64,000 nt of DNA, taken from contig OZ004611.1 in assembly GCA_963924565.1 (NCBI GenBank), forward strand, positions 30,380,001 through 30,444,000, written 5' to 3'. Every line of letters begins with the position of its first letter. Position 1 is the first letter of the stretch. The notes beneath the pieces are model-generated. The model was not told the origin of the DNA, did no database searches, and worked only from the letters and a program-made list of their open reading frames with translations. The position numbers and the translations under genes are program-made. This stretch comes from Ascidiella aspersa. Lineage: Eukaryota. Below, piece by piece: positions 32,901 to 63,393 of the stretch.

Positions 32901-34908
32901 TTGGTTTTGGCCCGCGACTAGAAAAAGTTGCCGACCCTTGCACTAGACCATGCCCCCCAAACTTGTAGTCCAGTTTCACTGTTAAAATACATTATTTTTG
33001 GCACATAATGTCAACTTTAGTCCGTTTTACTTAATTAGTCTATTGAGCCCAACAGTGTTATCATTCTATAGCTTCTTTCATCGTGTGAAATTACAGTTTG
33101 ACTATAAATGCCGTTATTTCGAGCAATATTCGAATCTAATTTACAAATTTCAGTTAAAATAGATTTAAACCCGTATGCGTTTAATTGAAGTTTTGCCAAT
33201 TTAAAACAAAAAACGCAATTTTCAAGTTCGCTCGAGGAACACGAAACTTGGACATTTTCAAAAACTTAACTATATATTTTCGCCCACACTGGCACACAAG
33301 GAAAAGAACAACAGAAATTAAGGACTTTTTTCAATCCAAACTATAGATTGCACCTTGTAGTTATAGGCTTAAATTTACACCAACACAGACGATCAGACAT
33401 CCAAGGATAAACAACAACAAACATTAAGGAATTTTTTTTAATCCTAACCATATATTTTTACCTATACTAGGCAAGTCAAAGTCTGGTTCCAAAACCGACG
33501 CATGAAGCACAAACGTCAGCAGCAGCAGACACAGAAGGACGGTGGCGACAAGGGCGACAAAAGCGACGACGCCGACAGCGCCGATTCGAGCGACGAAAAG
33601 GACGGAGAAGCCAAGGCTAAAGCCGGAAGCGACAGCGAAGCGGAGAAAAACGAAAATGGCGATTCGCCTCAAATTACGGCGCCACAATCTGCGGGAAATG
33701 AAGCTTCTTCATCCCGCGAGTTTGACGATAACCGGTCGAACACTACAAGTACAGCTGCTGCTGGTAACGATGTAAACTCACCAGGCGACTGTAAAAACGA
33801 TGATGAGCCTGATAGTAAGCGCAGTAAGCTCTCAAGTTGCGTGGGACATTCTCACGGCATTTTCCCGCAATCGGAGCCAATCGAAACCGTCCAGGAAGCT
33901 TCATTTCCAGCCGCAAACTTAAAGCGAAAGCTGAGTAGTGACCCGCGGGAAACGGCTCAGCAACCAAGCGCCAATGTAGCACAAACGCTCAACAATGAAG
34001 CTTGCTACGACCCCATTCCAAACCACAAGGCACTGGTTTCTGTTAAGGAGGAAAATACAACGTTACCAGCACTTGTACAGACCTACGAAGGCCAAGGCTA
34101 CAGCTACCAGCACCCTCAACACCAGCACCAGCAGGAAAAGACTGGTTATGAGGCTCGGGCTGTGTCGACTGCAACTGTACAGTACAGCGATGTACAGAAC
34201 CAGCAGCAACAGCACTACCAGCATCAGCAGCAGGCTAAGAGCAACTCCTGGCGGGATGCGTACACCTCCGCACCCACGGAGTACGCGGCTTGTGATCCTC
34301 GCTACCAAGACGCTCCAAAAACAACGCCCGGCGCCGAAGGACATGCCTACGCACCCGGGAACCGCTACCTTCAGTACCAGGGCGCCTGTAATCGCCGTGC
34401 GTCAGTCGCTTCAATGCATGAACGCTACGACTACACCCAACAGCATCTGCAAAGGCAAGCAAGCAGGCGAATGTCCGAAACATCTTACCCGAGCAAAAGC
34501 CTTGACTGGCAGGCTGGAAAAAGCGGCGCCCAGTACCGTAGCTCGCTACAGCTGGTGGCGGACAGCAGTGGCACGACCAAGTCCTCTTATCCAAGCGGAC
34601 GCGTGTTCACCCCGTACGATACGTCGTACAGTGACATGCGAGCACAGGGCGTCTACGGGAGTGACTACTTTGATTCCAGCTACACCAAACCAACGGGGAC
34701 GTCCGCTGGCGACATTAATGGTAAAGCTTACTTCAGAGCGGTTGCAAATCGTTGCGATTACAGCCCATCTGCGGGAAATGCGAGCTCCTATCCCGGCCGA
34801 CACTTCAGCCCGGCTCAGTTTGAGATCCACGCGCGGACAGTCACCCACGTGGACATTGCACAGACCGCTGGGTTGCTAGGCAATGCGCAGCGCGTCCTCG
34901 ACATGTAA
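5258..34908 (+). CDS. Hox2: Hox paralogy group 2 homeodomain transcription factor (Hox2/proboscipedia-like), join(5258..5972,29744..29891,33471..34908), 766 aa
   Basis: N-terminal [20 protein letters not shown] resembles the Hox2 GFINSQPSLAECL motif; hexapeptide FPWMREKK; spliced homeodomain [43 protein letters not shown]|[16 protein letters not shown] is diagnostic for PG2. GT-AG sites are phase-compatible (phase 1, then phase 2) and total 2301 nt. Micro-exons in intron 1 cannot be excluded. Confidence 0.93.
11414..11562. mobile_element. Short MITE with apparent 6-bp TSD
   Basis: CAGTGTTTT...AAAACCCTG termini flanked by tatatc on both sides; internal gcggtc repeats. Confidence 0.55.
11619..12118. 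mobile_element. hAT-type MITE (older)
   Basis: CATTGTTTCCCAACC...GGTTGAGAAACACTG; degenerate TSD (5/8). Confidence 0.65.
12488..12612. mobile_element. Family B repeat copy
   Basis: ggagcataatggttggaggttgtagtaagacg...gaacgtttcgaataactc followed by a short inverted arm. Confidence 0.65.
14190..14218 (-). promoter_or_regulatory. Candidate Pbx/Hox + Meis/Prep enhancer module in intron 1
   Basis: Minus strand TGATGGATGG(G) at 14190-14199 and TGACAG at 14213-14218, inside a GC-rich, apparently non-repetitive island (~13920-14345). Confidence 0.5.
14356..14570 (+). mobile_element. hAT-type element end (CAGGGGTTCTT), partial
   Basis: Homologous in reverse orientation to ~57660-57853; further related sequence at ~30960-31140. 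Confidence 0.6.
15442..15831. mobile_element. hAT-type MITE
   Basis: CAGTGATCGGCAAAC...GTTTGCCGACCACTG; TSD gtctaagc/atttaagc. Confidence 0.75.
16790..18220 (+). repeat. Two local duplications (~300-bp tandem pair; ~120-bp pair at 17704 and 18088)
   Basis: tacaaatacaaccag(g/t)gtggtaataatttaaga occurs twice; aagccaaaaattaaaacactatgactaaattcgcgccaaaaaccagtggct occurs twice. Confidence 0.75.
20003..20235. mobile_element. Family B repeat copy, inverted pair
   Basis: Same head as 49395; the inverted arm contains gatacctacttctgtat. Confidence 0.65.
21694..22144. mobile_element. MITE with AAGTC subterminal repeats
   Basis: CAGTGTTGT...ACAACAATG termini, flanks gccgcagg/gccgcttg; second copy in opposite orientation at 63659-63998. 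Confidence 0.75.
23169..23318. mobile_element. Family B repeat copy, inverted pair
   Basis: Near-identical to 49395-49579; retains TTGAAAA...GAAACGTTC on the minus strand at ~23244-23279. Confidence 0.7.
23855..24030 (+). mobile_element. Possible tRNA-derived SINE fragment
   Basis: B-box-like GAGTTCAAGTCC followed by a GC-richer body; no A box seen. Other isolated B-box fragments at ~15365-15420 (-) and ~35420-35630 (+). Confidence 0.35.
25856..26900 (+). repeat. ~185-bp tandem duplication decaying into a ~33-bp degenerate minisatellite
   Basis: tccat(g/a)aatgactggcagctc at 25856 and 26043; tatgacatatg x3; then repeated aagtcatttgc-aaatacctta-like units. Confidence 0.7.
28415..28740. mobile_element. 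Family A repeat, degenerate copies in inverted arrangement
   Basis: Two ggt(a/g)cactatacacggatctataat heads (28415, 28508) plus diverged arms in both orientations. Smaller fragments occur at 7524-7554, ~42530 and 45507-45600. Confidence 0.55.
29744..29891 (+). CDS. Hox2: Hox2 coding exon 2 (homeodomain residues 1-43)
   Basis: Acceptor ttcttgcag|GA at 29743/29744; encodes [49 protein letters not shown]; donor AG|gtattt at 29891/29892. Missing from the ORF track because it has no start codon. Confidence 0.93.
30331..31340. mobile_element. Cluster of family A repeats in Hox2 intron 2 (tandem and inverted copies)
   Basis: About five tatgcacggatctg heads with ttgattaagacgtt arms, and a fold-back at 31160-31340. 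Confidence 0.7.
32611..32940. mobile_element. hAT-type MITE in intron 2
   Basis: CAGGGGTGG...CCGACCCTTG termini, ggcccgcg subterminal motifs, TSD cactaggc/cactagac. Confidence 0.8.
33471..34908 (+). CDS. Hox2: Hox2 coding exon 3 (helix 3 and long C-terminal region)
   Basis: Branch-point-like cctaac at 33443-33448; acceptor ctatactag|G; encodes [16 protein letters not shown] in frame with the 33502..34908 ORF; stop TAA at 34906-34908. Confidence 0.95.
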
Positions 34909-37340
34909 GAGTCCTTCATTGTTTTTCGGTTAAGTTTTATTCCTTTTTGCTGCCCCGTTGAAATTAATTTTGAAAACCGCTTGCGTTTTGTTTTTTACTC
35001 GCTTTGGACCCAAAGCCATCAGCACTTTAAGTGAGCAATTTTTTACATTTGAATTGTAGAGAAACGTTATATCAATATGGTTGTTACTACTGAAACCATG
35101 TTTAGCGCATTACATGATTTTTCCCCCATATTAGTAGCCAATGTTGTGTGGAACTATCACACATGCCATACAGTTTTAAAATAACTAAAAAAAGCAAATC
35201 ATAAACGTTTAAAGCCAATCAAACCTTGAACATTTAAAGTAAACCAAAGCGTATAGTTCAAAATATTTTAAACCAAGTCAAGCACCAGCTGACAAAAAAT
35301 GGCGCTTATTCGTTCGTTGCAAGCCAACCTCCAAGTTGCACTCCCTACACTGCTATAAGTAAAAATCGGGGCTAAGCCTCAAGCAATTGACCGCACACGG
35401 GCAAAGCAAGCAGTACTTGGCGTCTGTAGTTAAACGCTCGTTTGCCGAGTTGTTTTGGTGCTACATGGGGCGTGGGTTAAAGTCCCACGAGGGATTTGGG
35501 GCTGTTTTCGCAAGCAAATGCCCCTTTGAGCGTTTGCTTTGATGGATGACCAGCAGTCTGGGCCATTGCGCTTTTTGCCGTATTTGGTGAATTCAGTGCA
35601 CTTTCTCAGCTAAAGGCGCCTCTTAACAAAAAAACAGCGCTCCCCAGAAAGATCTACACAGCGCAAAAAAATCTGTAAAATTTGAAGAGTTCGAAAACCT
35701 TAAAAACAGTGATTTTGGGTATCTATATTGGCATTCCCCCTAGGCTTTTGGACAAATGACGACTTGTTAGTAAAACTTGACTTGTTATTTATACTGGGAC
35801 AAAAAGTAACCCTTAAAATCTTACGAGTTTCCAAACCTTAAAAACGTGATTCTGTACATCTTCAGTGGCATTAACCCTAAATCACACAATGCATCTCAAA
35901 TACCATCTTTTTTAGTATTCAATTATGAACAGCAGTCACTTAATTAATCAACAACACTAGAATGAATTAAAAGATTGCATTTAAATGAAGTGTTAAAATT
36001 CCAGACCATTTGAACAATATAGGTTATGTTTTTTTTATTAACCATTTACAAGATAGCGCTTCACTATATTATCAAATGGAGCCAACAAAACTTGTCAATT
36101 TAACCCTTGCAAATAATCCCTTATAGGATAAGAACCACTGAACAACCTCAATGTACACATTTCAGGCGAAATGTTAATTTTAGATATCACCGCTTAATTT
36201 GTACTTTAAACCTTACAAAAAGACCTTTGATACTGAAAATGTCTGCCCAAAACTTTTAGTAAGCGCTGTACTATTTATAAAAAAGGAATTTATTTTCAAA
36301 ACAAAAAGGTTTGAGACAACTCAATAGATTTAGTTTTACAGGCGAATTTCTTCCTAATGATTATTTCATTTGTAAGAATTTAGGTTGGAATTTGTGTTAC
36401 AAGTAAAATCAAAGGAAACATACACCTAAAAAAAAATAATATTTAGCAGCTTAAATACGTTTAAAGGATTAATTTTTAGAATTTACTGCAGTAAAATGAC
36501 CTAAAACCACGTGAACGATTTAGGATTTTATCATGTGTGTTCGTCGACTTTTTTATTTCGAAGATGGTTATCAGACCTAAGCTAAGTGATTCTAAAAACG
36601 CGCTTTTTACCACAAAGAAATAATCTAGAGTAAGGTGGTCTGCTATCTATGGGAAAAAAACTAAAAAAGTCTGCAAAAAGATCGGTTAAAGTCTCCTTAT
36701 ATCCTTTAAACCAGTGCTTCCCAACTTTTGGTTCGCGACCCACTTTTAATGCAAGTTTTATTGTACAACCCACATGAGATATGACCAAATTGTTTAGCAA
36801 TAGTATGAAATGCATCTGATTGGAAATAGGATTACCAGTTACATAAAATCTGTATCTTTACTACTGACGTACGTCCTGGAATAGTTACAGTGACACAACA
36901 CATCTAATTTTGACATATTTGCGATATTGTTGGATTAATGCTACGTAATGATAATGCAATAATTTCGTGATCGAATAGAAAACTGTAACATTTAGAAACG
37001 CTTCGCGACTCACCAATGGGTCGAACTGCTTTACACCACGAATATTGCTACTTTGCTTAGAGAAACATTTTTCATTTAGCGTACTATACTCAAGGCAAAA
37101 GACGAACGTATAGTAATGCAATTTCGTTTTAATATATATCACCAAGACGCAACGAATAAATAGAGAATTGCGTAGAACTTTATTTATTGCTGTTTTTATG
37201 AGTTCGTATATTGTAGTACAGCGCTGCGGACTTTTAAAGTGTTAGATTCTTTTTATTTATTCGTGAAAAAAATATTGCTAAACCGTTCAATTTTCTTGTT
37301 TGTATAAACTGTTGCTACCAGGCATAGTAATATAAATATA

Positions 37341-37540
37341 AAAAACAGCTCGTCTGGTAATTTTCATTCTTTACGAACGTTTCGGCAACCTATACAAGCC
37401 GCCTTCGTCAGGGTGAATGACACTGAACGCTCGTACAATAAATGGAAAAACACACGAAGGAAAAAAGCAGAAAAAAAGGCGCATAGGTTGCAGAAAACGT
37501 TGGTAAAAAATTAAAATTACCAGAGGGGCTGTGTTTTGAT
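37341..37540. mobile_element. Fold-back element C1
   Basis: aaaaacagctcgtctggtaattttcattctttacgaacgtttcggcaacctat is imperfectly inverted at ataggttgcagaaaacgttggtaaaaaattaaaattaccagaggggctgt. Confidence 0.6.
37364..37420 (-). ncRNA. Minimal hammerhead ribozyme motif (fold-back element C1)
   Basis: Minus strand TCATTCacc-CTGACGA-A-GGCGGCTT(gtat)AGGTTGCC-GAAA-CGTT-cgtaaaGAATGA. Confidence 0.6.
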
Positions 37541-38065: not shown

Positions 38066-38569
38066 CAGTGTTTCTCAACCTTTTTTAGTGGTGACCCTAA
38101 TATTAACAGAATACTGTGGCTATTCAATTAATTATCTTCGCTGAACCTTTTTTTTTAAATTGATGCTTGAATTAAACAATGAAACCTGAACACACACATG
38201 TGTGTTTACTGACCGGAGGGCCGGAGGTCGTGAGTTCGAACCTCACTGCAGGCTAGTTGTTTTTCTAGTCTGCTCTGCTTGCATCAATGATGTACAGATT
38301 CGGTGAAGAGTCTACAATGGCTTTCGGTATTGAATTGAACAAAGAAGAAATTAAATTGAAAACAAAAGAAACGGCATTATTAAAGTCAATGCTATTAAAT
38401 ATGGATCATATCGTTGTTTTGCTTCAGCAATTTTCTTAAATTTTGAAAAAACCCTTGCTGAGAACCAATTTCAATAAATCTAACTATATAAAACTACTTA
38501 AGTCGGTGACCCAACCAAATTAAACGTCCACCAAATTTTGGGTCGCAACCAATTGGTTGAGAAACAATG
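38066..38569. mobile_element. hAT-type MITE with a nested insertion
   Basis: CAGTGTTTCTCAACC...GGTTGAGAAACAATG; TSD gtatacac/gtacaaac. Confidence 0.75.
38178..38330 (+). mobile_element. Truncated, rearranged copy of the tRNA-like element nested in a hAT MITE
   Basis: ccggaggtcgtgagttcgaacctcactgcaggctagttgtttttctag... matches the reverse complement of 46777-46884. Confidence 0.7.
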
Positions 38570-41071: not shown

Positions 41072-42556
41072 TTAAATATTAGACCCTTGAATTTTGCTCC
41101 ACGCTAAAGCTCAAAGCGTTCATTTGTACACCATAAAAATAAACATAAAGGAAGTTCACGTTTATTCATTTGTGAGTTGCGTGACGTCAAGGTCGCTTTC
41201 AGAATAACAACAAGTCAAATTTTAGTCCATTGCCGACGCAGCAAACCTAAAACTGGTGTAAGGAGCCTTACGCGAAAATCACCAACTAAAATATGCAAGT
41301 CATTTGCCTAAAACAAGCTGTTTGTCAAAATTATGTCACTCATATCAGGCCACTATAAAACATTTGAACAACTGCAATTAAAGTCAGTTACTTAATTCAC
41401 CACAATACTGCTACAAATCGGAGCCTTATAGTTAAATGCGCTTTGTTTCTCAATGTCGGCCCTGGTTTGATGCAATTTACGCTTAATAAATAACGTAATA
41501 TATCTTATTTACTTAAAGAATTTTTTCAATTATATATATATATATATTTTTGAATTAGAACAAATTACTTGCAAGGTTTATAAAAAAAATTGAAAATAGT
41601 ACAAAGCCAAAATTATAAAATACAAAAAACTGGCAATTCTTTAAGATCCAATATGATACAATCGCATTTTTGCTTTCAAAAGATTTCAACACTCGAAAAC
41701 GAGGTCATTAAAAATTGTAAAATGTACCTTTACGCTTTTTAAAAATTACCTTTAAAATGATTCATAAAAAAGTAACGTTCATTTTAATGTATCGTTTTCA
41801 CTTAATAATCGTTGTAAATTTTCAGAAACAATTAAAGTCGTTACAGACTAGTGAAAATCCGATTTACATTGTTTGCAAAAGTAAAACTGTTAATCTTTTA
41901 TAAGCATCTACATAACCATGTTAAACAGACTAAACTCCCCGGATCATTTTAGAAGGTATAAACGTAAACACCACTGATCCACGCGTAAATTGTTCGCGGT
42001 TATATATAGACAACACTCGCAAAAGATACCAGTAATCATTTAATATCCACTTTTTACACAGTGCTGAAAGATTACATTCTACCGCACCTAGCGGAAAGTA
42101 ATACCGATGATTTTCTGCCACTAAGAGGTTTAACAATAAACCGCCACAGCAAAATTTGACTAACAAAGACGCGGCTTATATTTTTTCCCGAGCAATCACT
42201 CTTCAGAGTGCACAACGATGAGCCGTGTAAAACATTTGTAAATTGTGTCCTTTTATGTGCAAGATATGTCATTTACTAATGTAAATATGCCAAAAGTGCA
42301 CCGACTATGTTACGCTTTTTCGCAATGTTATCTTCTGTGCCAACTTCCGAGCAATATTTGGCTTTAAAAAGAGGAAGTATGGCAATACACAAAATTAAAT
42401 GGTCGTTAGCCGCCTAAAAGCTTTCCTATTGTAATATGTTTTCCTGTTGCTTTTTTCCGTCCCTTTATTCATTAATAAAAAAACGAAGCTGTACGAAATG
42501 ATTTGCGAATAAATAAAGAGTTCCTTTGGAACACTATATACGGATCTGTTCATAAG

Positions 42557-42833
42557 TTTAATGGTGAAAATAACGGCCCAAATAGACGTAAGAAGCGACA
42601 TGCTTTATTATTCAAACGTTTCGGCAAATGCTCATGCCATCATCAGTGATATGAAGGCCACATCAGCAGTTACACCCGTTTATATACACTTTAGTCGCAT
42701 AAAGGAATGATAAAAAGGTGCGCAACAAGCGTCGCAAAAACGATAGATGATGGCATGAGCAATTGCCGAAACGTTTGAACAATAAAGCATGTCGCTTTTT
42801 ACGTCCATTTAAGCCCTTATTTTCACCATTAAA
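42557..42833. mobile_element. Fold-back element C2 with ~88-bp inverted arms
   Basis: 42557-42644 and 42746-42833 are near-perfect reverse complements; aaataaagagttcc occurs at both 42511 and 42831. Confidence 0.7.
42609..42651 (-). ncRNA. Minimal hammerhead ribozyme motif (fold-back element C2)
   Basis: Minus strand taTCA-CTGATGA-T-GGCA(tgagcatt)TGCC-GAAA-CGTT-TGAata. Confidence 0.6.
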
Positions 42834-43727: not shown

Positions 43728-44889
43728 CTTATCACATTCATGGAAGTCAGATACTTGCTATTTTATTCCGGCACCGACACGCGAGATTCGGAGCAAAATT
43801 ATCGCGACCCCACCCGACACCAAATGACGTCATTACTATGCTCAACAAGCAATATAAACATAAAAAAAAACGTTCAAAGTTTTTTTACCATGTTGAACTT
43901 GGCATTGATGTTAAAAATTTAACACCAGTTGCCTCTACTTTTTAATAAATTAACATTTCAAGGTAGTAATTGGTTGCGTTGTATCGCAAATTAAAGCCGA
44001 ATTTCTATTTTAGTGTTTTTGGAGCGGCATCGATACCACCGTAATATCGGACCAGTAGCGATACGGCGACTTGGTATCGTGTATCGGCTCCGATTCGATA
44101 CTTTTGGACAACCCTAATCACTCAACACACCTTATTGTTTAATTCAGTTTGACTTCGGTAACGCATAAGATGTAAAGGATTAAAGGATTCATTTCCCATT
44201 TTCAAAAGGCTTATAGTAATCGGCTTTCAAAAACTACTCTGGATTTTTCCTTTTTACCGAACGTGTAATGCAACCAAGGGCGATATATGCTAAAGGGCAT
44301 TGCGTAAAGCCTCTTAAAGAGCCCACAGCATAATGTATTGCTTCATTTTGTTCAGCCACGAAAAATTCAGGTTGTTGCAAAATCTTTACAGCTGAAGTCA
44401 CTACCTTTTTAAATTACTAACAGAAGTTTAAAGCAGGGCTGCCGAGTCGGTTTAAAACAACCTGAGTCCGATGAAATAAAGTCCCGAATGTTTCCTTAGG
44501 GCTTGGAAGAGTTTTCGTTGTAAAGTCATTTGATTGATTTGCATATTATTGGTTTTCCAATAACAAGTTATTGCTCGTGTTGCCTTATTATTTACATAGC
44601 CGGTACAGCTAGATTGTATCTTGCAAGTTTAAAAAGGGAAACTTTTTTGAGAGTAGTAGGCCGCATTTGTTTTGAAATTTCCGGGCTAACTATTTATCTA
44701 ATCCACCCTGTTAATAATCCTATATACATTTTGAGTAAAGTTGAGTTTTTCGACAATTTGTTAGTACGCCAACAAGATTATGGAATCTTGAGGTGGTACG
44801 CAGTGAAAAAAAGGTTGAGAGCCACTGTTATAAAGGATAACGCAATCCAAACTAAATAAGTTTTTCCCACTGTGCTTGCCTCGTTTCAC

Positions 44890-45262
44890 TCTCAAAACAA
44901 TACGATTTATCACCTTGGCAGTTTAAAATAGAAATGTAATGCTATTTTTAATCACAATGCTTTCTTTGCTGTGTTCGAACATGTTCCTTTTATTATGCTT
45001 TCCCGTTTTAGCTTCACTTTTAATACAGTACAGATCATCACCTTGGAAGTCTAAAATATAAATGTAATGTTATTTTTAATCGGAAATACTCCCCTTCAGA
45101 GAACAATTTAAACACTACCGTCCAATGCTATATCCGAACATGCTTCTCTAACTGCGGTTTGTCTCATTTTAACTTCACGCTTAAAACAGTACAGATTATC
45201 ACCTTGGAAGTCTAAAATAGAAATATAATGTTATTTTTAATCGGAATACTTCCCTTCAGAGT
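44890..45262 (+). repeat. Tandem ~130-160-bp unit x ~2.5
   Basis: atcaccttgg(c/a)agt(t/c)taaaata(g/t)aaat(g/a)taatg occurs three times. Confidence 0.8.
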
Positions 45263-46675
45263 ACAAGCATCATGCAACAAGGGCAAACAATCTTTAATAA
45301 GTCTGTTCACGTTTATGTGACCTTCTCACTTATCAAATTGCTTAAGCTACAGAATTGTGTTTTCCAACGTCCAATTTTGTAAATCCTGAGAGATATTTTT
45401 GTTGCTTATACCGCACGATTGTTAAGATAAACTTATATAATTGACCTGAAGAATATCATTATTTTCTAATCTGTTAAAGGACAATCTTACAACCATACTT
45501 TAACGTAGGTTCACTATGAACGGATATGTCATGTGGCTTGACAATGAATGTCAAAGCGTACCAAAACTTCTTTTGTAAGATGATGTCAATTTACTCGGCC
45601 AAAATATGTTAAACTATAGTTTTAGTTGTCCAATCTGCCTGGAAAAATAAAGTTAATTTGAAATTGTTGGCATTTTGCGATCTAGTTCCAGTTGTCTCGC
45701 AGAGTTAGGGGACCTTTTCTGATGACAATGCTTTTTTTTTTTATTAAACCAAACTCAGCGGGCAAAAAATTTTCGGTGTTTAAAAGCACCATTAAAAGGA
45801 AAATACTTTGACCAATGTTCAGTCATGAAAAGGTAAGGCGTAATGTTTACTGCAGCTAATTATTTAGGTTAGGTACGGGTTAGCGTTTGGGCTGGGGGGA
45901 TCAAGTAATATGATATTTATTCTCCTAGGTTAATAAATGACTAAAACATACATAATAATATTTTTGACTGCTTTAGCTGCATTGGGCATTACGTCATACC
46001 TTAACCTGCCTTGGACATAACATTTGGTCATAGTATTCTGATTGTGACCTAATCCAAAGTAGAACGCGAACAAAGGTTGGTCTAACAATAGAGGTGTCGA
46101 CTGTTTTGTTTGCTAGCCTGTTGGTAGCTCAAAACCCCAATTAGAAATGTCACCGGCTATTTATAGCAGGGGCTGTACGGCCAAATTGTCACGTCACAGA
46201 AGGCGGTATTGTATGTCACCTTGAAAACCTTTGCAGGTTATTTTGTCCTTTCGAACATTGCGGAATCCAACCTTGTGTTTCAGTCAGCCTTTAAGCTTTG
46301 TTAAATTTTACTTAACTTATTGAGGGTTCGACTAACCGTTAGGTAAAAAGTCTACGTTTGGAGCACCAAGAAAACAGTGACATTACTGAAACGTTTTCAT
46401 GGCATGTTTTAAACAGTTAACTAATCAATAATAGTGTTTTTCTTTAACATATATAATTTGTTTTTATCTTTTTTATTGGTTTGTGTTTAACGAAAATCAT
46501 ATCAATCACTATGTTTTTTTGCGACGATAACTTTAAATGCACTTCGGGGATAATATTAGTAATATGTTTGCAAGCATTTTAATATTGCAATTGATATTAC
46601 CTGCGAAGCGAATCCCTGTGCGACGCCCTTGTAAAATTGCGCGTCGTGAAGCACACTTTAAGACTCTCTGAGTAA

Positions 46676-47124
46676 AATGAAAGACACACACAAACATATG
46701 TGTTTAATAACATTTGTGATCTAGCCCCTCGGAAGTTGCTTTATGACCAACGATTACGGCTTCCGTATCAATAGTACACCGAAAAGCCATCGCAGACTCG
46801 CCGAATCTGTCGATCTTTGATGCAAGCAGAGCAAGCCAGAAAAACAACTGGCCTGCAGTGAGGTTCGAACTCACGACCTCCGGTAAAGCCGGGACCGTCG
46901 CTCTACCAACTGAGCTATGCAGGCTCAGAGAGGAGCGAGTCGAGAAACAACCATGCGCCAATACTTGCACATTTTTGTTAGTACAAGCAACTTCACACTG
47001 GGGGATCATCAGTCCGTATCAATCAATGAAAGACACACACAAACATATGTGTTTAATAACTTCTGTGATCTAGCCCCTCGGAAGTTGCTTTATGACCAAC
47101 GATTACGGCTTCCGTATCAATAGT
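46676..47124 (-). mobile_element. Non-autonomous element with 100-bp terminal direct repeats and an internal tRNA-like gene
   Basis: 46676-46775 and 47025-47124 differ at 2 positions; tgagtaaaa flanks both ends (46669-46677, 47124-47132); related fragment at 38178-38330. Confidence 0.75.
46850..46924 (-). pseudogene. tRNA-like Pol III gene with non-canonical anticodon arm (T-arm resembles elongator tRNA-Met)
   Basis: GCCTGCA/TGCAGGC acceptor stem, A box TAGCTCAGTTGG, GCTC/GAGC D stem, GTGAG-TTCGAAC-CTCAC T arm and a TTTTT terminator 5 nt downstream; the anticodon region is 2 nt too long with no canonical 7-nt loop. Confidence 0.7.
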
Positions 47125-49394: not shown

Positions 49395-49579
49395 TGGAGC
49401 ATAATGGTTGGAGGTTGTAGCAAGACGTAATAAGAATATCAAAGCCCATACTGAAGTATAGGTATCATTTTGAACGTTTCGAATAACTCTTTATTCATTT
49501 TCAACATAAATGTAAATAGTTATTCGAAACGTTCAAAATGATACCTACTTTTGTATGGGCATTGATATTCTTATTACGT
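49395..49579. mobile_element. Family B fold-back repeat (hammerhead-like, Penelope-like non-autonomous element)
   Basis: tggagcataatggttggaggttgtag...gaacgtttcgaataac arm followed by its reverse complement. Confidence 0.7.
49467..49510 (-). ncRNA. Hammerhead-like motif with U3/A8 core (repeat family B)
   Basis: Minus strand atg-TTGAAAA-T-GAATAA(agag)TTATTC-GAAA-CGTT-caaaat; 6-bp stem II, weak stem I. Confidence 0.45.
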
Positions 49580-50389
49580 TAAACCTAACAAAGATTTAAG
49601 ATAAATTCAAATTAGTAGATCATTAAGTACTTGGACCCATACGCAATCAATCTAAATTCTAAGCCATACTTTCATTATGAAACTTTGCTAAAAGGTCGTT
49701 TTAAGCTGCAAATAGATTGTAATTTAGATATAGTTAGTCGCCAGGGCAGGAATACTTCCAAATCGAAAGGGCTGATTACCAAGGTTAATCAAGTCCTCGA
49801 CGCAAATGCGATCGATACCCAATTACATCTCGTCAGGTCTTCAATAAAGATGGGACTATAAGATTGAATCTGCCTGTCAAATCCCCAAGCAGCCTAAATT
49901 GCTCGTATATTGCAATTCATTTGATGGCCCAAAGTAATTCGTAAGTTTCATTAAAGTTTTCGCTTATACCTAAGTGAGTTAAAATATTTCCAGTAATTAA
50001 ATTTTGTGACTGCTTCAATCGAATGCTAGCTGTTGGAAAGCCGACGTTTTAATCTTCGATCTATCGCTCATATAATTTCCCCTTGTGCATCGCTCACACG
50101 ACGTTCGCATAGCACGGCGCATCCGTTCAATTACAACGACATTAATATCGACCGGTCCTCGCACAGAATGCGGATCATCCTACGACCACTTTCACTTTCC
50201 TAACGTCTCAATTGAGGACTCCTAACGTTACTCTGGTTAGAGATAAAGGCTGGAAACAGCTATCACTTGTGGGCCTTGATTTATTTCTTTATGCGAAAGT
50301 AAAACGTTTAAATTTCATGCCAGCGCTTATTTTATAATTATCTATGTGGTTTTGTACGTTGTGTTCCGTAAAAGTTAGAAAGTAGTCAT

Positions 50390-50710
50390 AAAACGTAGTA
50401 CGAATTTCAAAGCCCATACAGAAGTTAGGTAGCATTTCAAAGGTTTCGAATAAATATTAAGATAATGGATGGCGGAGTTTGCAGTTAGACGTAGAATGAG
50501 TATCAAAGCCCATACAGGAGTAAGTAGAATTTTGAAAATTTAGAATAAATATTAACATAATGACTGTAGCTTGTAGTTAGATGTAAAATAAGGATCAAAG
50601 CCTATACACGAGCGGGTATACCATTTTAAACGTTTAAAATGCTCCCTACTTCTGTATGGGCTTTGATATTTTTACTACGTCTTACTACAACCTCCAACCA
50701 TTATGCTCCA
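50390..50710. mobile_element. Family B array: three tandem partial arms plus one inverted arm
   Basis: tcaaagcccataca repeated about every 95 bp, then ctacttctgtatgggctttgat...ccaaccattatgctcca. Further degenerate copies at 58282-58378, 61437-61575 and 62755-62980. Confidence 0.65.
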
Positions 50711-51285
50711 ATATTCATAAAACATTACTCTGGTTGCGACGACCCAAATACTAAAGCTTAAATATAACATGAAGCTTTGGCGACCCAGTTCTCGTCAGTG
50801 ATTTTTTTATTAAATGGAAAAAACATAAGACAAGCATAAATAACTTCCAATTGAGTTAATATGAGGCATGTGTTCGTATTTCTCCATAAGCCTTCTCAAA
50901 TTTTAGAGACATTTTATTATGCACCAATCTTAATAAATCTAACAATATAAATCAAAATCGCTAGTTGAAAAAGGAACAAATAGAACTACTAAACACAATT
51001 GTAAATAATTCGTTTTTGTTAAGTTAAAGTGGTCGAAAATGGTGTTTTGTTAAGGTTTGAAGATAATGCTGTGCTATAAGGGTCAAAAATAGCATTTTCA
51101 AATGGTCGAAATGGTAGTTTGTGCAAACAATAAAAAATAGTAAAAGTTTTTCGTGTTCAAATAAATGTTTTTGTCGTTTAAACAAACCTAAATTGTGATT
51201 TTATAAGGCTTGTAACTATTGTTTTGCAAAAAAGAGCCTTAAATCGTGTTTTACAAATTGGAATTTTCAAAAATTGACCTTTTAT

Positions 51286-51440
51286 TTGGGTACACTATGC
51301 ACGGATCTGTAATGTAGCTTAATAATAAAATCAAAGCCACTAACTGAACTAACTGAAGATGATACAAGTTCGTATCGAAACGTCTTAATCAAGATGCTGT
51401 CGATCTACTCGAACTTTTTGGCTTTGAAATTTATTATTGA
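51286..51440 (+). mobile_element. Family A repeat with intact hammerhead core
   Basis: ttgggtacactatgcacggatctgtaatgtagctt head followed by the inverted arm containing the hammerhead motif. Confidence 0.7.
51348..51389 (+). ncRNA. Minimal type-I hammerhead ribozyme motif (repeat family A)
   Basis: taa-CTGAAGA-T-GATAC(aagttc)GTATC-GAAA-CGTC-tta: intact core, 5-bp stem II, GUC triplet, predicted cleavage after 51384; stem I is short. Confidence 0.65.
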
Positions 51441-51864
51441 CATTTTATTGTCCAATAATAATGTTTAAAAGAATAAAGAAGCTTTGCAACGAAATGTAAA
51501 ATATTGTTTATGAAATGGTTAAAATGGTATTTCGAAATAAAAATCAAGAATTGTATTCAACAAAATGTTAAAAAATAGTATTTTGTGAAACGATTAAAAT
51601 AAGTGTTTTGCAAAAATAAAAAAATAAAAATGGTAGCAAATGGTCGTATAGATACCGGAAAAACACAAAAACGTGCGTTCTTCTTAATCCGACGCACAAT
51701 GAGCGAAATCTCGTGGGCCCATTGGTGGCAATCGCACTACGCCTGTGCATTGCAGTGCAGTCAGGACACTGCTGCGTACATACTTGGTGCTATACACAAG
51801 TGCACAGCGATTGATTTCCGTTATATGAGAGCCATGTGCACTGTGCAGTTGCTTAGGCGTGTTC

Positions 51865-52410
51865 AACGGCCTTCTATGTAGGGATTGCAAGCTTAGGTGT
51901 ACGCAATATCATAATGCAATGGTTTGTAACAATATGAGCTAGGCAAGGGTTGGTAGATCAGTATAATGTTTTTAATGATAACCAGTGTGAAAAAGATGAT
52001 TACCAGTGTGAAAAAAGTGGACAGCACTGTGCCATTGCTTATGGCCGCTTAACGGCCTTCTATTCTAGTAAAGGATGGCAAGCTTAGGTGTACGCAATAT
52101 CATAATGCAATGGTTTGTAACAATATGAGCTAGGCAAGGGTTGGTAGATCAGTATAATGTTTTAAATGATAACCAGTGTGAAAAAGATGATCACCAGTGT
52201 GAAAAAAGTGGACAGCACTGTGCCATTGCTTATGGCCGCTTAACGGCCTTCTATTCTAGTAAAGGATCGCAAGCTTCGGTGTACGCAATATGATAATGCA
52301 AAGGTTTGTTACAATATGAGCTAGGCAAGGATATAATAGAATGTTTTCAATGATAAAGAGTGTGAAAAGAACTGAATAAAAAAAAACTAAAAATAGGACA
52401 GAGCAACTGT
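51865..52410 (+). repeat. Tandem ~190-bp unit x ~2.8
   Basis: aacggccttcta at 51865, 52051 and 52242; the first two units are nearly identical. Confidence 0.9.
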
Positions 52411-54764: not shown

Positions 54765-57436
54765 ATATAGAGTAATGTTAAATTTGACGCTCTGTTTTTC
54801 GACTTGTTTCGTAGCCGTGTTAGTTATTTATTGTTTGGCTGTAAATATTCTTTTTTTCTTAAAGTTCAAAGTTTATTGGCCTGACGAAGATTGACAAATC
54901 TTTGAAAGACGAACAATTTTATAATTGATACAATGTCTGGAAGCAACAATATAATAGTAAAATTCGAACCAGTTTTCTTCCTTTCTGTGAACGTCCAGAT
55001 ACAATGTAACAAAATCGATAATAGCATATACCTGAGGACAGCCGACACAAACGTATGGAAATTCCCCTAAAGTAGGAAATGACATTACGTTTTTTATTGA
55101 TCCTACAGGAGACATGCTGTTACGTGTCACTTTTTTCCCAAAGATTTGCAAGCCAGACATTTTCTTTAAGGATTAGTTTTATGAACCCCAGAGACACTCT
55201 TAAAACTGAAAGTAAAATTAACGAGACACGTTCAAAAATATTAGGGTTATGTGCTACCTCCTACTTTAAATAATGCAGTAATTCGTGATATAAACCAAAC
55301 TATAGAAATTTTTTGCTGAAACTATATTTTTGCAATGTTTGGTTTGCATTTTTTGTTTTGAAATATGTGTTGTTACAAAATAGAAAGAGAACAACTGAAA
55401 CTAGCTGTAATTCTTATTGCCGAACCAGCTATAGACAGACCGGCTAAAAGACTGTGTTACAGTATTTAGAGACGCATTCAGCACTTAAAACAGGTCTTCT
55501 GGTTTTTAGTTTGTTACCAACTTTTGGTATTTTTGAGATTTTTAGTTTTATACTACTGTTACCTTTGTAAAACGTTCCGCGAAAGTTGAAATTTGAAACT
55601 GAGAACTCTTCTAGGTCCCTGCCTCTGCACGACCATGCTAAAATAATGTAAAGTTTAGTTGGCGATTGTGTTTGTTATTACTCTTACATTTGAAGATCGT
55701 TAGCTTTACCACTTGCAATTCAAGTCAAAAAAGTATATCTAATACAATGTATATTTGTGTATATTTCATGTAGGTCCATACTGGACTCCCCAACAAAACG
55801 TTACCTCTGGAAACCACCCCTTACTATACTATACCTCAAAAAACAATAGGCACACAAATTTTTTGCATGGACCGAATTAAAGGTTATTATTATCGGGTTA
55901 AAGCACATTGTCCAATAAATGCATAATATTCTGTTTGTTTATCTTGTGTTGTACTTGTAGAAGGTTATATATAGAGAGCTGTATTTTTAGACTTTTAATT
56001 TGACACTACTTATACCTTTGTAAAAAGTTCCCACGACAGTTGATATTTGAAACTGAGAGATCTTCAAGGTGCCTGTTCCGCCAGCAGTGTTTAATATTTT
56101 AAGTTCAGTTGGCGATTGTGTGGTGCACTTATTTGTACATTTGAAGATCATTCGTTTTACCATCTGCAAATCATGTCAAAAAATTATATATTATATAGAC
56201 GTTACCTTTGCGCATAATTAATGCGGGCCTACCCGACTAAAAATAAAACATGGTATTTTCAACGCCACGCCCTTGTATTCCTCAAATAATTACTGAGCAA
56301 AGAAATCGTTTAATGGAACGAAAGTAAAGGGTATTAGGATCATGTTAAAATAAATTGTACAAATAAAACCATAAAATAATGTTCGTTTATTTCGTGCCAT
56401 ACTTCAAGTGTAAATAGAGCTGTGGTTCTTAGCCAGGGTTTCTCACGCTCAAGGGTGCCAAGCGATCTTTTAAATTGTGCTGAATTACCAATTGCTCTTT
56501 GATAAGCTTCTTGGTACAATTTTTTGTCTACTTTTGGAATGCAACAATCCAAAAACTCTTATCTTCATTGCGCATAGCTGATGTGTGTTGTTTTTATAAG
56601 GCTTATGGTGACATAGTAAACCACTTCAAAGAACCAAAGGTGTCCCGAAGTGCCCATATTTTGTATAGGGTTCCGTAATTTAAAAGAGAAGAGAAAACAT
56701 TGATTTACAGAAATGACCGCGCAAAGGAAAAGTAGTTCTCAGACATAACAGCGGCGTAACAAGAGGAGGCTTTGCGATTTAACAGAAGGTTGTTTCCAGC
56801 GATACGAGTCCTGAGAAAAATGCATTGCATTTGTACGGATATTTTACAGCGCTTGCAACAAAACCTCGTGACACCTTTACATGGGAAACACTAAAATGTT
56901 GAAAGACACTCATAGAGTATCATTTGGTCTCCTTAAAAATACCTTGTAAAATTAGTATTCGATAAATTTAACCGGCTTCAAGAATACAAAACCCGCTGTC
57001 AGTTACAATTTTAATTCAACCCAGGCCCGTGCTGCCGTCCTCCAAATCAATAATAGGAAGAGCGAAAAAGGCTTAAAACCTTAGCCCCGGCGCCTTGCCA
57101 AATGAAGACTAATTGATTGTAATTGAATTGCGGCGAACTGGTTTGCCCTGGATTAGGACACAGGTTACGCGTACTTGAATTATTCAAGGTGGTTGGGGAT
57201 TTGGTCGATGCACTTAAAGTGAGAGATCCTGGTTGTGGATGCCGTAAGCGGTTTGCAATCAAATGGGTTTTAAAATTTTAATTACCAAGATGACCTTGCA
57301 ATCTGCATGACCTTGAATAGAACCACGCAAAATATTTCCGCAAAGCGATTAAAACTACTACATTTATGTTGGAAATACTTTTATTTACTTTTTTTGGCGG
57401 GATAATGAATTACAAAGACAAAAATGTCGAATAGGT

Positions 57437-57551
57437 CAGAAGGTGATACAAGCTCGTATCGAAACGTCTTTATCAAGATGATGTCGATCTCTACTCGGCA
57501 TTTGCAATTCATTTCCAAGCTACATTACAGATCCGTGCATAGTGTACCCAA
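57437..57551 (+). mobile_element. Family A repeat, complete sense arm with mutated core
   Basis: CAGAAGG-T-GATACAAGCTCGTATCGAAACGTC...CTACATTACAGATCCGTGCATAGTGTACCCAA. Confidence 0.7.
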
Positions 57552-60235
57552 GGTTTTTTTTAACAATTCTATTACAATGACTCCACATCTGCATGGCTGC
57601 CACGCTTAAGATTCCCGCCAAGCGAAAATAGTATATTTATCTCATTATTGGAAATGCTTAATTTACTGAATGTACTTGGGACTATTTTACATTCACATTT
57701 CTGGACCAAAATCAGCAGATTTGTGAAGTCTATTTGTATTGTGACGTCAGTTTATGACGTCATTTCAGAAATTTTCTTACCCACTCTGGTTCAAACGAAG
57801 CAAAAACAAATTTTTAGGGGTCCATGGTAAAAAAAAGGTTAAGAACCCCCCTGATTTAGAGGATCATGTTACATGCACAACGCCACGGCCACAATTAGAA
57901 AAATAACGCATTAACTATTATAAACTATTATGTGCATTAACTAAATTAAGTTATTTTTCGCGAAAGCTTAATCTGCGAAGAAAGTATACGCAGACCTCAT
58001 ATAATTAGTTGTGAATGCGCTTTGCATTTGAAGGAGGTTTAACAATTTAATTACTTCTGCACTGCGAGGCTCCCTAGGGGGTAAAATTTTCCGATTGAAT
58101 TATATCGCAGTATGGTACCGACGTCCCCAATCTATTTTGAAATCTATATTTAAGCTCTATATATCGTGGATGTCCGGCATTGATTTTTTTCCTGGTAAGA
58201 TAGGAAATGCTTTTTTGTGAAGCTTTTAATACCTAAACCTCTTCATTGCCGAGGTGAGGCAAGCATAGTAGGTAAAGTTATGGAGCATAATGGTTGGAAA
58301 TTGTACTAAGAAATTGAATAAAAAAAAAATTCAAAAGGCTTCTTATGCTTCTGTCAGGGCTTTGATATTCTTCTTACCAGCTAAAAAATTGACGAACCAA
58401 CTTGGCCAATTCTATACAATAAATACACATATCTTACCCCGCAATTTTTTTATTGCATTTGATTTTGTTATATTGTAAAGAGTGAAGTTAAACAACTTTT
58501 AAGTAGCTCAGACATTTCATTAAATGTCATGTTGTTGTGCGAAGGTTATGTTGAAGAGCCCAGATGGGTCGTTACTTCTTTGCATTGTAAAATATTAGGA
58601 GGCTTGTTTTCTTTCCACAGTATCTTCTTAGCTAACGTTTGCTGCATTTAGCACAAGCCTAATGTGTAAGGACTCGCATTTTAAAAGACGTCGAGAGATC
58701 TCTCATTATTTTTTTTTATTTCTCCTGCGGTTTTCCGATTTACGCTTCAATTTTTTATAGATGCACAAAGTCATCGGAAATATTGTTTTTTGGATTTTGA
58801 TGAGCAGGTATTGGTTGGACGTATATATTTAATACATTGCAGTAGGAGTTCTTTTAATCATTGTGCTTAAGTTGACGTTCTTTATATTACAACTGGTGAC
58901 CTATATGAACATAATAAGCTACTCTATCAAAACCAATAACACCATTTTAAATGGGTTAGGGCTGAAATTATTAGCAGAGTTAGTGTATTTAGGTAAAATG
59001 TTGTATAAGCCTTATTATGACGATTTAGGACTTAATCCGACGGATTTACGAATTATTCCTGGTCTTAATCTGGACTTTATTTTATTCTGACGTTTAAGTT
59101 GTTTACATTTCTGTCTTTTTATCTGGAGTCCAATTAACAGACGTCATTTTTGTCGTTAATGTTATGTAAGTCCGTAACGTTTACGAGATGGTTTTACGGT
59201 TGCTTGGGTTAGGGCAGCTGTGATGACAACATAAAAAGTCGCTGACGCACTGCGACCAAATGTTGAATATTTGCAGAAAAAAAATCTCTGCAAAAATGCG
59301 ACGGATTGTGTTGTTGGTTGTGTTGTCTTTGGACCACCACAAAAATCGACGGTGTTTGAAAGCATACGAACAGAAATATAAGGGTTGGAATTCGAGATGA
59401 CCGGTAATATCGGTTTGGAGCCGATACCCGATGCCAATTAGTAGGGGATATCGTCTGATGCTTGGGATCTGTATAGACATCGGAATCAGATTCCAAGTAT
59501 GGGACACCCCTAGTTGTTATATGCGTCGTAAGCTTGTAGTAGCATCTTTATTACCTGCCCAAATATTTTAAAACGCTTTTCCAAGTACTTGACAACCTGC
59601 TTAAGCCCCTCCTTTTCCGCGTTAATTTTCACAGCCTTCTCTTAACGTGATTGTTTTTTTCCCGTCGTATTGAAAAAGCACCTTATCCAAATCTAAACTT
59701 GCAATAATTTACTTTTGGACCGTTAAGCACGAAAGCTAATCCGTTACAACAACTTTAAGAGGGGCGTTAGCCTTTCGCACACACCCTCTTATAACGTCAC
59801 TCGCGCGAGCGGCAGACATGCCATGACGTCACCAGCAAGATACGTCCATTGATTTTGCGAAAACACTTAATGAAACGTACATGTGATTGACATTAGCCGC
59901 GTTTTTTCTGCCTTAAGCTTTTTAAATATACTTCTATTAAGAATCAGTAAAATATTTTAGTTTATAGAACAACTTAAGTTCCTAGCGAATATTGCGAATA
60001 TTATAAACTAATTCGTTCGTTTAAATAAGAATTTTTTTTAGTGTAACACAACACTGCTAATCCTTAACTATAATCATGAATGAAAACGATCGCGAAATTA
60101 TTTTAGGAAGAAACCTATTTTTTTGGCGAGAGTTATTTTTGATAAATTAAAACCAATGTATTTAAAAGAAAATAAATTTGTTAAAAGTTTTTTCATATGT
60201 GGTATCGGTAGTTTTTTTTAATAATAAACACCTTT

Positions 60236-61211: not shown

Positions 61212-63355
61212 CTATACACTATACATGCAAGCCTTGAGGCAGGTATGGCGCTAAGGTCAAGTCAGGGGCGGGGCGATCGCGAATGACTTCACCTTAGCCC
61301 AAGGACCAGGGAAGTCATCATCGTACTGTCATCGCGTGACTCGGACTTATAATGTTACTACAACGCCCGGCCGATCATTTGTTGTTGCAAGCTCGGCGTA
61401 TAGGCAAGGGCAATCATTTCAGTCCTTGCTTGTAAATATGGTTAGAGGTTGTAGTTAGACGTAGTAAGGATATCAAATCCCATGCAGAAGTAGATATACA
61501 CTATGTTGAAAATATATATAAGAAAGAGATACTCGAAACCTTCAACGTGCTACTTAGTTCTGTATAGCCTTTGATAGATTTAGGGTTTTGAATGCATTGC
61601 GGGCTTTCAGATTATAACAGGGCCTTCAAGATTCAAGAAAGGATCATGCTAAATGAATTCCGGACTATATAGAAGATGAAGTGCCTTGGAACTAAAACTT
61701 TTCCAAAAACATTTACGAATAGATTAAAGGATTTTGGAATAGATCAATAGTGCTTACTCAGGAGAGAATAATCAAGTTATAAAGAAAGGGTAATAACTTA
61801 AGGCTTCTCTGACTAAACAATCAGATTTTAAAATCAAAACGAGCCCCTATTTAAAGTTTAGCTGCTTTTGAAGTATTTGTGTCTGCAGTTAAATGGATGG
61901 CCTTTTTAAACAGAATTGTTGTGCTTAAAAAGAATTCAGTGTTTCGAGAAAGCTCACTACAAAAACTGAAACAGTTTAGTGCCCGGAACACATTTTAAAA
62001 ATAATCCAGAAACTCTGTGAGACATATTTGAATCATAATGGCTAAAGATTAGAGTGGACGTACAATGAATCACTGAGCGATTAAATTTCGTATAAACAAA
62101 TTCGAAACATTCGCAAAACTTCTGTATGGGATCTGGTATTTATTCTACGTAATGACAAACATGTATATTTCCCTTCGTTTAGCAAATGCTGAGGTTTTAT
62201 GGCTGTAAAGAGTGTCACTGCAGACTCAGAACTTGCGCCAACGCGTACACGCAAACGCTTTAGCACCGGAACAAAGTTTTCAGTGTTTGACAGCTCTGAA
62301 TAATTCATTACGTAAACCAGACGTCGGTTTCTTCGCGGGTTGTGCGTGATTATCCTCGAGTAAGATTTTGAACCCCGGAGACCCAAACCCCGGAGCAACT
62401 TAAAGTTGTTGTTTTTACGGGAGCGCGTTTTGAGTTCCAGATGTGTAGTTGTTTTAGCAGCGGAGACAGGTCAAATTATTACTTGGAACTTGTTTGTGTG
62501 ACATTAAACAACTTCGAATTTTGCCGCTGCTGACGATAATGATAATTTTAACGACTATTATAACAAACTCTAACTATACCCTTGTTTTCGTTTAAGTAAA
62601 AAAATGCCACCTATAACTATATCATTACAGATTAGCATTGCTGTCGTTTTCTTAAGGCAGATAAAAATATTAAATACCTTTAATACGAATTACTAATTTT
62701 AAACACAATGGAGCTGGTTAAATATAGTTTTTTATTTTTTAAGAAAAATGACAAGTTGTAGTTAGAGGTAGAAAGTTTGTATAGAAGCTCGTAGCATTTT
62801 GAACGTTTCAAATAAATCTTAAGATAATTGCTTGAGGTTGTAGTTAGACTTAGAATGAATATCAAAGCCCATTCGAAAGTAGGTATAATTTTGTAAACGT
62901 TTCTAATAAGCCTTAAGCTAATGGTTCAAGGTTGTATAGTTAGACCTACAATAAACACCAAAGCCCATGGAAAAGTAGAAAATTTTTGTACGTATTGTAA
63001 AAGGGGCTTGGGCTAAAAGGGGCTTGCCCAAATGAACTACGTCACTGGGGATGCTAAACTTGTTATTGCTTGTGTGGTATTGTGGGTAACATCGCAATCT
63101 AGTGTCGAAACAGCAGCATGTGCTTTGTAACAATATCACCTCATTTAACCCCTTTTGATAAATTTTGAGAAACTTGATACTACTTTATATACTTATATAA
63201 TTTTTAGTTAGCCACTGTGAACGATAATCGAAATCTAAACGAATATTATGACAAACTTCAAATTGTTTTCTGATACATAAAGAATTGTAGCAATATTTGT
63301 AAATGGCGGTATTTCCTTGTGTTTTTACACGATTTTTACTGTCTTCATTTCTACT

Positions 63356-63393
63356 TTGACCTGATGAATCACGGTTGTGCGAAAGCTTGTCGA
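63356..63393 (+). ncRNA. Minimal type-I hammerhead ribozyme motif (type D)
   Basis: TTGAC-CTGATGA-A-tCAC(ggtt)GTGc-GAAA-GCTT-GTCGA: 5-bp stem I, 3-bp stem II, palindromic AAGCTT helix III. Confidence 0.6.

Follow-up and report, generated by a model that had tools for sequence, protein, structure and literature searches.

A U3-A8 minimal hammerhead motif of the Penelope-like type in short inverted insertions of Ascidiella aspersa

The window analysed here, a stretch of 64,000 nucleotides with about 36% GC, contains on its minus strand at 49504-49473 a minimal type I hammerhead in which positions 3 and 8 form a U-A pair. A preliminary description of this DNA claimed a UUGAAAA core on the minus strand, and this heptamer is indeed found at 49504-49498, with U3 at 49504 and A8 at 49499. 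Judged by sequence and pairing, the motif is a minimal hammerhead (min-HHR) of the Penelope-like element (PLE) type in its U3-A8 variant; it has the structural features of this class, and its cleavage is a prediction. The motif belongs to a repeat family, hereafter family B, the copies of which were compared within this one genomic window. It is quite probable that family B consists of short 5'-truncated PLE insertions whose pLTR carries this minimal type I U3-A8 hammerhead, and that the insertion at 49395-49579 is a neutrally decaying fossil.

Anatomy of the insertion at 49395-49579

The insertion is 185 bp long and consists of a sense half (hammerhead, arm and tail) placed head-to-head with an inverted copy that lacks the last 30 nt. 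Its parts are the following.

49395-49579, minus strand: whole family B insertion, made of inverted truncated copy, hammerhead, arm and one-sided tail; folds as a long single hairpin
49513-49579, plus strand: inverted (head-to-head) copy, 5'-truncated and without tail, starting in loop II; base-paired with the sense copy over its GAAAC box and the 3' strand of its helix II
49505-49512, minus strand: helix I 5' strand; 2 bp, a bulge or mismatch, then at most 5 further bp in this copy; partner strand 49472-49466
49497-49504, minus strand: core box 1, i.e., U3 (49504), U4, G5, A6, A7, A8 (49499) and A9, with an unpaired extra U (49497) before helix II
49481-49496, minus strand: helix II; 6 bp, G10.1-C11.1 closing pair, 4-nt loop
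49473-49480, minus strand: G12-A13-A14-A15.1, loopless palindromic helix III (C15.2-G16.2), U16.1 and U17; layout as in the published min-HHR alignment
49395-49468, minus strand: start of an ORF, as a remnant; ATG at 49468-49466, 4 nt past the cut, with an in-frame upstream ATG from A9-U-G10.1
49395-49424, minus strand: AC-rich tail of 30 nt, on one side only

Both core boxes of a PLE-type min-HHR, N3-U-G-A-N-N8-A and GAAA...UH, are present together with a Watson-Crick 3-8 pair. The GAAA lies at 49480-49477 and U17 at 49473, and the predicted cut site, after GUU, is between 49473 and 49472. Helix II contains six Watson-Crick pairs, and the palindrome at 15.2-16.2, ACGU, is self-complementary, leaving little or no loop 3 as in other min-HHRs. 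Four marks of PLE hammerheads are thus combined in this motif, i.e., the extra nucleotide after A9, the G10.1-C11.1 pair, the loopless palindromic helix III and the GUU cut. The weakness of stem I, raised earlier as a caveat, is real, since helix I has only two contiguous pairs (G2.1-C1.1 and U2.2-A1.2), followed by an A.A mismatch or a bulge; 2 bp is at the bottom of the published range of 2-6 bp, and the outer pairs vary among copies. Two other layouts, a type III reading with stem III supplied by the inverted arm and a downstream GUC as the cut site, were rejected on inspection, as helix I cannot close in either.

In an alignment of 69 columns, the two arms of the insertion show 4 substitutions and one indel of 2 nt. 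Family B insertions are about 100-320 bp long, and their central junctions vary from one insertion to another. The 3' ends of 21 arms fall at the tail end in ten cases and at -24 to -32 in six, the remaining five being shorter, and about 17 of the 21 arms extend 5' beyond the cut site, with noisy boundaries. No target-site duplication is evident by eye in the 20-nt flanks of 7 insertions; such duplications are variable in PLEs and often absent. The head-to-head 5'-truncated inversion, the 30-nt tail at one end and the two clusters of 3' ends among 21 arms are the features of a PLE remnant, suggesting from sequence that 49395-49579 is a probable 5'-truncated remnant of a PLE pLTR.

The ORF remnant of this copy is frameshifted by a 2-nt insertion, which it has in common with the copy at 12487-12612. 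Read from the A9-U-G10.1 ATG, the family B majority sequence stays open over 34 codons, a length that is not significant alone (212 of 2000 shuffles), and the ATG at 49468 is the one that aligns approximately with the sister families. Protein-level conservation between these families, described below, indicates that the first codons of an ORF lie in the pLTR and tail, and we infer that they belong to a PLE ORF. A Pfam search of 150 of the 155 window reading frames of at least 65 aa found no RT or GIY-YIG remnant, and the PLE origin is therefore deduced from the anatomy. The same result led to the rejection of an autonomous Penelope-like element, for which no RT/GIY-YIG ORF was seen among these 150 of 155 frames. 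Protein searches with a short peptide alignment returned no autonomous RT-EN partner, and three representative-protein matches (P0003-P0005) were set aside as low-complexity repeat artefacts.

The 3-8 pair in family B and its sister families

Besides the insertion described above, four family B copies keep core box 1, and two insertions of other families are needed for comparison.

23169-23322, minus strand: family B copy with U3-A8 core at 23276 and damaged helix II, antisense within a Hox intron
61438-61580, plus strand: family B copy whose left arm carries the tail; U3-A8 core at 61506, with decay of both helix II and the palindrome
20003-20245, plus strand: family B copy with U3-A8 core at 20159, carrying A9>C and A15.1>G
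19755-19828, minus strand: strongly decayed family B copy with U3-A8 core at 19784
42522-42833, minus strand: sister-family insertion with canonical C3-G8 minimal hammerhead at 42646, architecture as in family B and homologous downstream peptide; outgroup for the 3-8 comparison
51286-51440, plus strand: family A insertion with C3-G8 minimal hammerhead at 51353

Family B has 20 profile matches, which cover 1,425 bp of the window. The proposal that U3-A8 is a trait of the family, based on the recurrence of the 11-mer atgTTGAAAAt, is borne out, as U3 and A8 occur in all five copies keeping core box 1, with neither C3 nor G8 in any of them. The 11-mer itself occurs at four sites (19787-19777, 23279-23269 and 49507-49497 on the minus strand, 61503-61513 on the plus strand) against 0.34 expected, a count reached in 0 of 100 shuffles. 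The extra U after A9 is likewise present in 5/5 of these copies and G10.1-C11.1 in 3/5, the 61506 copy having lost G10.1 and the palindrome. The family majority retains the extra nucleotide, G10.1-C11.1, the palindrome and every other position of the core. Tandem family B units of ~95 nt are also seen at 50369-50718 and 62753-62995; in these each unit runs from its tail end into the 3' strand of helix II of the following one, and because of this junction they are without core box 1. An unnamed NCBI protein of 90 aa (P0002), the one match of the peptide-alignment searches besides the three artefacts, appears to be the translation of another family B palindrome, running through inverted arm, core and sense arm, and the inverted arm of the repeat encoding it requires U at position 3. 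P0002 is probably a spurious gene model or chance translation, and family B would thus occur outside the window as well.

The window was also scanned with a descriptor that follows the minimal hammerhead of the literature, leaves positions 3 and 8 free and makes no demand on helix I. Four matches were obtained (51353 plus, 49504 minus, 42646 minus and 37411 minus), all with a Watson-Crick 3-8 pair, three C-G and one U-A. Shuffled windows gave 0.03 matches each, or 0.01 with U3-A8, and none of 200 shuffles contained a match with a Watson-Crick 3-8 pair plus a helix I of at least 2 bp. Three of the six shuffle matches were also Watson-Crick at 3-8, so the 4/4 count in the window is weak alone; more weight falls on how rare the motif is as a whole. 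Among the five core-bearing family B copies, only 49504 passes the descriptor.

It had further been claimed that standard searches would miss the U3-A8 core. An Rfam scan indeed misses 49504, but the miss is not specific to the variant, as the three C3-G8 motifs are missed too and no hammerhead was reported at E <= 1 for any of the four. A strict hammerhead scan that does not allow for the extra nucleotide misses the 49504 motif altogether, and a pattern scan of prokaryotic genomes gave 0 matches. The Rfam matches to miRNA families (33-34 bits, with thresholds of 53-99) are generic hairpin matches, and a miRNA precursor was rejected.

Whether U3-A8 is compensatory was addressed within and between families. 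Covariation inside family B, which the preliminary description had put forward as a check, is not seen: in 7 aligned segments (5 with core, 2 truncated), 0 of 16 pairs change on both sides, which is below the shuffled means, and only 38.8% of the helix I cells are paired. This absence is what is expected from neutrally decaying genomic copies. The comparison with the sister family is more informative on this pair. Downstream of the cut, the 42646 copy and the family B arm align over 21 ungapped codons ending on the same codon, with a peptide score of 52 against 20.8 +/- 3.5, reached by 0 of 5000 shuffles; the pair was chosen after the translations had been seen, which makes the test post hoc, with a wide margin. 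Nucleotide identities by codon position are 13, 13 and 8 of 21, four of the nine identical residues show synonymous differences, and the other five frames score at most 18.

Anchoring the comparison on the hammerhead numbering, nine pairs of the 42646 motif can be set against family B, of which six have changed on both sides and are still Watson-Crick, two are identical and one is broken. The six double-changed pairs are 3-8, two in helix I and three in helix II. The helix II covariation arises partly by construction, as the descriptor demands a helix and the helix lengths differ, which does not apply to the 3-8 and helix I parts. C3-G8 versus U3-A8 is thus, as read from these alignments, a double change between families, and the compensatory reading of U3-A8 gains support from the homologous C3-G8 family at 42646. 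The family A copies at 1318 and 9402 carry U3 with G8, showing that single transitions are easy.

Family A is linked to family B less clearly. Comparison of single-copy DNA is weak, the score being reached in 20 of 2000 shuffles with the core and 321 of 2000 without it; the consensus sequences give 5-11 of 3000 (global) and 24-296 of 3000 (local), and the peptides 193 of 2000. The only strong homology link between the families therefore appears to be that of the 42646 copy. A cross-family MAFFT alignment was left out of the results because it misaligned the cores.

Several neighbouring repeats were recorded. The insertion at 42522-42833 is the best-preserved sister insertion, with 88-nt arms that are 92% complementary, and its ~100-nt spacer upstream of the core holds a TATA-like box at 42686-42679, possibly a pLTR promoter. 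Family A has 21 profile matches amounting to 1,737 bp, including the 42.5-42.8 kb copy, with sites at 1318-1412, 9402-9480, 28413-28757, 30328-31339, 45503-45600, 51286-51440, 57394-57554 and 7523-7558; it has the same inverted-plus-tail architecture as family B, and its C3-G8 core has survived intact at 51353, with single decays at the other sites. Two more minimal hammerheads, belonging to other families, lie at 37340-37537 (core 37411, minus strand), inside an inverted repeat and with C.C in place of the pair that should close helix I, and at 63361 (plus strand), with a 3-4-bp helix I and an AGCU palindrome but U10.1. A tRNA-Ala-like sequence at 46850-46924 (minus strand; Rfam 54 bits, ARAGORN) is flanked by a 100-nt direct repeat (46676-46775/47025-47124, 98%), has a second copy at 38221-38328 (87%), and may be a tRNA-derived SINE. 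Tandem duplications unrelated to the hammerhead families are found at 51838-52368, 55527-56404, 2494-3056 and 44885-45266, the array at 51.8-52.4 kb having a period of about 190 nt with 90% identity.

The 49395-49579 insertion lies ~14.5 kb downstream of the last coding exon of a plus-strand homeobox gene, which by its diagnostic residues we take to be Hox2/proboscipedia-like. Segments of this gene are at 5189-6019, 29707-29901 and 33448-34908, all on the plus strand, with an FPWM-type motif in an upstream exon, and its homeodomain is split (Pfam Homeodomain positions 1-42 in 29707-29901 and 41-57 in 33448-34905). Its introns house several family A and B insertions. None of the four descriptor motifs lies between the identified Hox exons, so that cleavage of the Hox pre-mRNA would not be expected. 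A literature search found no paper combining Penelope-like, hammerhead and Hox cluster.

Folding, proposed origin and alternative readings

The minimum-energy fold of 49395-49579 is one long hairpin (-87.4 kcal/mol, z -17.8), and forcing the hammerhead fold in the whole element costs 33.1 kcal/mol, the inverted copy capturing the GAAAC box. The probability of the G10.1-C11.1 pair is correspondingly 0.96 in the isolated motif and about 0 in the whole element. Even the isolated motif favours the pairing of U3-A7 with bases across the cut (-4.8 kcal/mol vs. -3.1 kcal/mol for the hammerhead). In the 23276 copy, where helix II is damaged, the hammerhead fold costs about 10 kcal/mol. The changes U3C, A8G and both together, made in silico, barely alter the predicted fold, and thus folding cannot decide activity. 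Because helix III is loopless, a monomer cannot fold and two copies must pair their ACGU palindromes. This dimer-only function and the burial of the core in the long hairpin were overlooked in the preliminary description. Since the hairpin of its transcript is predicted to capture the GAAAC box, the 49395-49579 copy is most likely inactive as a ribozyme.

Published work on PLEs suggests how such a motif could have functioned in a parent element. Two hammerhead copies would swap strands there, their ACGU palindromes forming a 4-bp helix III, and the parent RNA would be cut slowly after GUU by this dimeric hammerhead, perhaps with the assistance of protein; the hammerhead of the Anolis PLE PAc is reported to cut only with protein present (PMC11167929). 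Reverse transcription by the PLE protein would be initiated within the AC-rich segment, at one or the other of two sites separated by 30 nt, and would stall or fold back near helix II, giving a short inverted pair. U3-A8 would have been fixed in the parent lineage because the 3-8 pair was kept, the hammerhead staying viable.

A different division of labour may be considered, in which the hammerhead serves as the fold-back hairpin of reverse transcription, creating the inverted copy, and as a translation switch, more than as the knife of transposition; we regard this role as rather unlikely. In such a switch, cleavage would leave a 5'-OH RNA with the ORF ATG 4 nt downstream, in helix I, and would permit cap-independent translation of the PLE protein. 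Hammerheads of viral 5'-UTRs whose cleavage licenses cap-independent translation are described in a recent report (PMC13725137). If the hammerhead did act as a translation switch, the U3-A8 and C3-G8 sister families of one genome would offer a natural pair for relating ribozyme strength to PLE expression.

The covaried pair could also have arisen in a dead ribozyme, i.e., the insertions would be PLE-derived, and U3 and A8 would be two neutral transitions fixed in a master copy whose hammerhead was irrelevant. The U3.G8 decays at 1318 and 9402 show how easily C>T occurs at position 3, helix I has only 2 bp, and the ~17 of 21 arms that pass the cut 5'-ward would come from uncleaved RNA, within the noise of their boundaries. 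Hammerhead mutants of the Anolis PLE PAc, moreover, are reported to have left insertion in vitro unimpaired (PMC11167929). However, neutral drift of this kind fits poorly with a family majority that has kept the rest of the core, the extra nucleotide, G10.1-C11.1 and the palindrome, or with two helix I pairs in each of which both bases differ from those of the sister family; the U3-A8 state is also reported in about 1,300 S. mansoni motifs (PMC4209133). An origin by neutral change is for these reasons improbable, and a selected 3-8 pair in a PLE-derived hammerhead is preferred.

The pairing of U3-A7 across the cut raises another question, namely whether UUGAA is simply the inverted-repeat partner of the cut-spanning UUCAA, produced by fold-back or template switching, which would make U3 uninformative on catalysis. 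U3-A7 is complementary, base for base, to the five nucleotides at the cut, the predicted fold pairs both, and sequence resembling the inverted arm stands directly upstream of the core in 5/5 core-bearing copies. Yet a distinct ATG, which the inverted arm cannot supply, precedes U3 in 4/5 copies, the spacing from U3 to G10.1 is identical to that of the three C3-G8 motifs of the window, a canonical core occupies this position in the homologous sister family, and the symmetry leaves A8 unexplained; such mimicry is thus very unlikely. Still less credence is given to a self-propagating non-autonomous hairpin, MITE-like or retrozyme-like, that would be amplified whole and use its inverted arms as an extended helix I. 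In its favour, the 64 kb contain about 20 arms and no ORF body, the arms of the 23276 and 61506 copies have the core at their apex, and the frameshifting 2-nt insertion is common to 49395-49579 and 12487-12612. Against it, the central junction is different in every insertion, the one-sided tail may be on either side of the core, the arms contain a protein-coding signal, and core box 1 is missing from the tandem units of both arrays (50.4-50.7 kb and 62.8-63.0 kb). Among named classes, a non-LTR retrozyme was rejected on the tandem family B units without core box 1, and a MITE or foldback DNA transposon on the one-sided tail and copy-specific junctions.

The preferred reading, PLE insertions with a U3-A8 hammerhead, would add one more animal lineage to those with this variant, and the homologous C3-G8 and U3-A8 families within one genome support selection on the 3-8 pair. 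Short palindromic repeats of the Hox region become readable as PLE ends through the hammerhead, the tail and the 21-codon coding signal. No new ribozyme chemistry is revealed, and the importance of the finding is modest.

Comparison with published hammerheads and PLEs

The novelty of U3-A8 implied by the preliminary description does not stand, as the variant is already published (PMC3088659; PMC4209133). Natural hammerheads with U3-A8 covariation were reported in 2011 by Perreault et al., who state that covaried 3-8 versions are active in vitro, citing Przybilski and Hammann 2007 (PMC3088659). These hammerheads are like family B in their 3-8 covariation; however, the filters of that study required stems I, II and III beside the core, whereas 49504 is a dimer-type minimal motif (PMC3088659). 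In 2014, U3-A8 was described in PLE minimal hammerheads, with about 1,300 matches in S. mansoni, and the supplementary alignment includes a PLE-linked S. mansoni example with a UUGAAAA core and CGUU as well as a hemichordate example with U3 and G8 (PMC4209133). According to the same source, the published minimal motifs were inactive when monomeric, and their activity was low when they were dimeric or had an extended helix III. Dimeric PLE hammerheads are attributed to Lunse et al. 2016 in a review (PMC6765202).

The closest published motif is that of PMC4209133. The min-HHR of the Schistosoma mansoni PLE Cercyon shares with 49504 the UUGAAAA core, an extra nucleotide after A9, G10.1-C11.1, a 6-bp helix II, a loopless C-G palindrome, U at position 17 and AU-rich flanks, and Cercyon motifs are likewise reported as close opposite-strand pairs. 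In contrast, the extra nucleotide is U in 49504 and A in Cercyon, helix I has 2 bp rather than 3, the flanks are unrelated by eye, the window has no attached PLE ORF, and the animal host is different. The 2-bp helix I of 49504 is shorter than that of most published examples and equals the lower limit, found in D. virilis.

Non-LTR retrozymes are, like family B, non-coding repeats with type I hammerheads that are thought to be PLE-dependent; they are arranged as tandem units of ~170-400 nt, each with a complete hammerhead, whereas family B is inverted, about 110 nt and minimal (PMC7229834; bioRxiv 10.64898/2026.07.22.740005).

The architecture of family B is best matched against EN+ PLEs. PLE insertions in general are described as combining a 5'-truncated copy in inverted orientation with a tail of 30-40 bp at one of the ends (PMC8557442). 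In Penelope of Adineta vaga the repeats are head-to-head, the tail measures 31 bp, and pLTR and tail together hold the first 12-22 ORF codons (PMC3846280). In the Anolis Poseidon element PAc, two start sites of reverse transcription close to an AC-rich stem-loop have the tail between them, and the ORF begins at stem II, with the cut 26 nt downstream (PMC11167929). Unlike in these elements, no RT or endonuclease sequence is seen with family B in the window, and its insertions measure only about 100-320 bp, and PAc is C3-G8 where family B is U3-A8 (PMC11167929). Family B shares with EN+ PLEs the head-to-head inverted pLTR and an optional ~30-bp tail at one end, together with the first ORF codons in pLTR and tail, an AC-rich end and AT-rich insertion sites (PMC3846280, PMC11167929). 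The A9-U-G10.1 ATG of the 49504 motif lies 26 nt from position 17, the same distance as from the PAc ORF start to its cut (PMC11167929).
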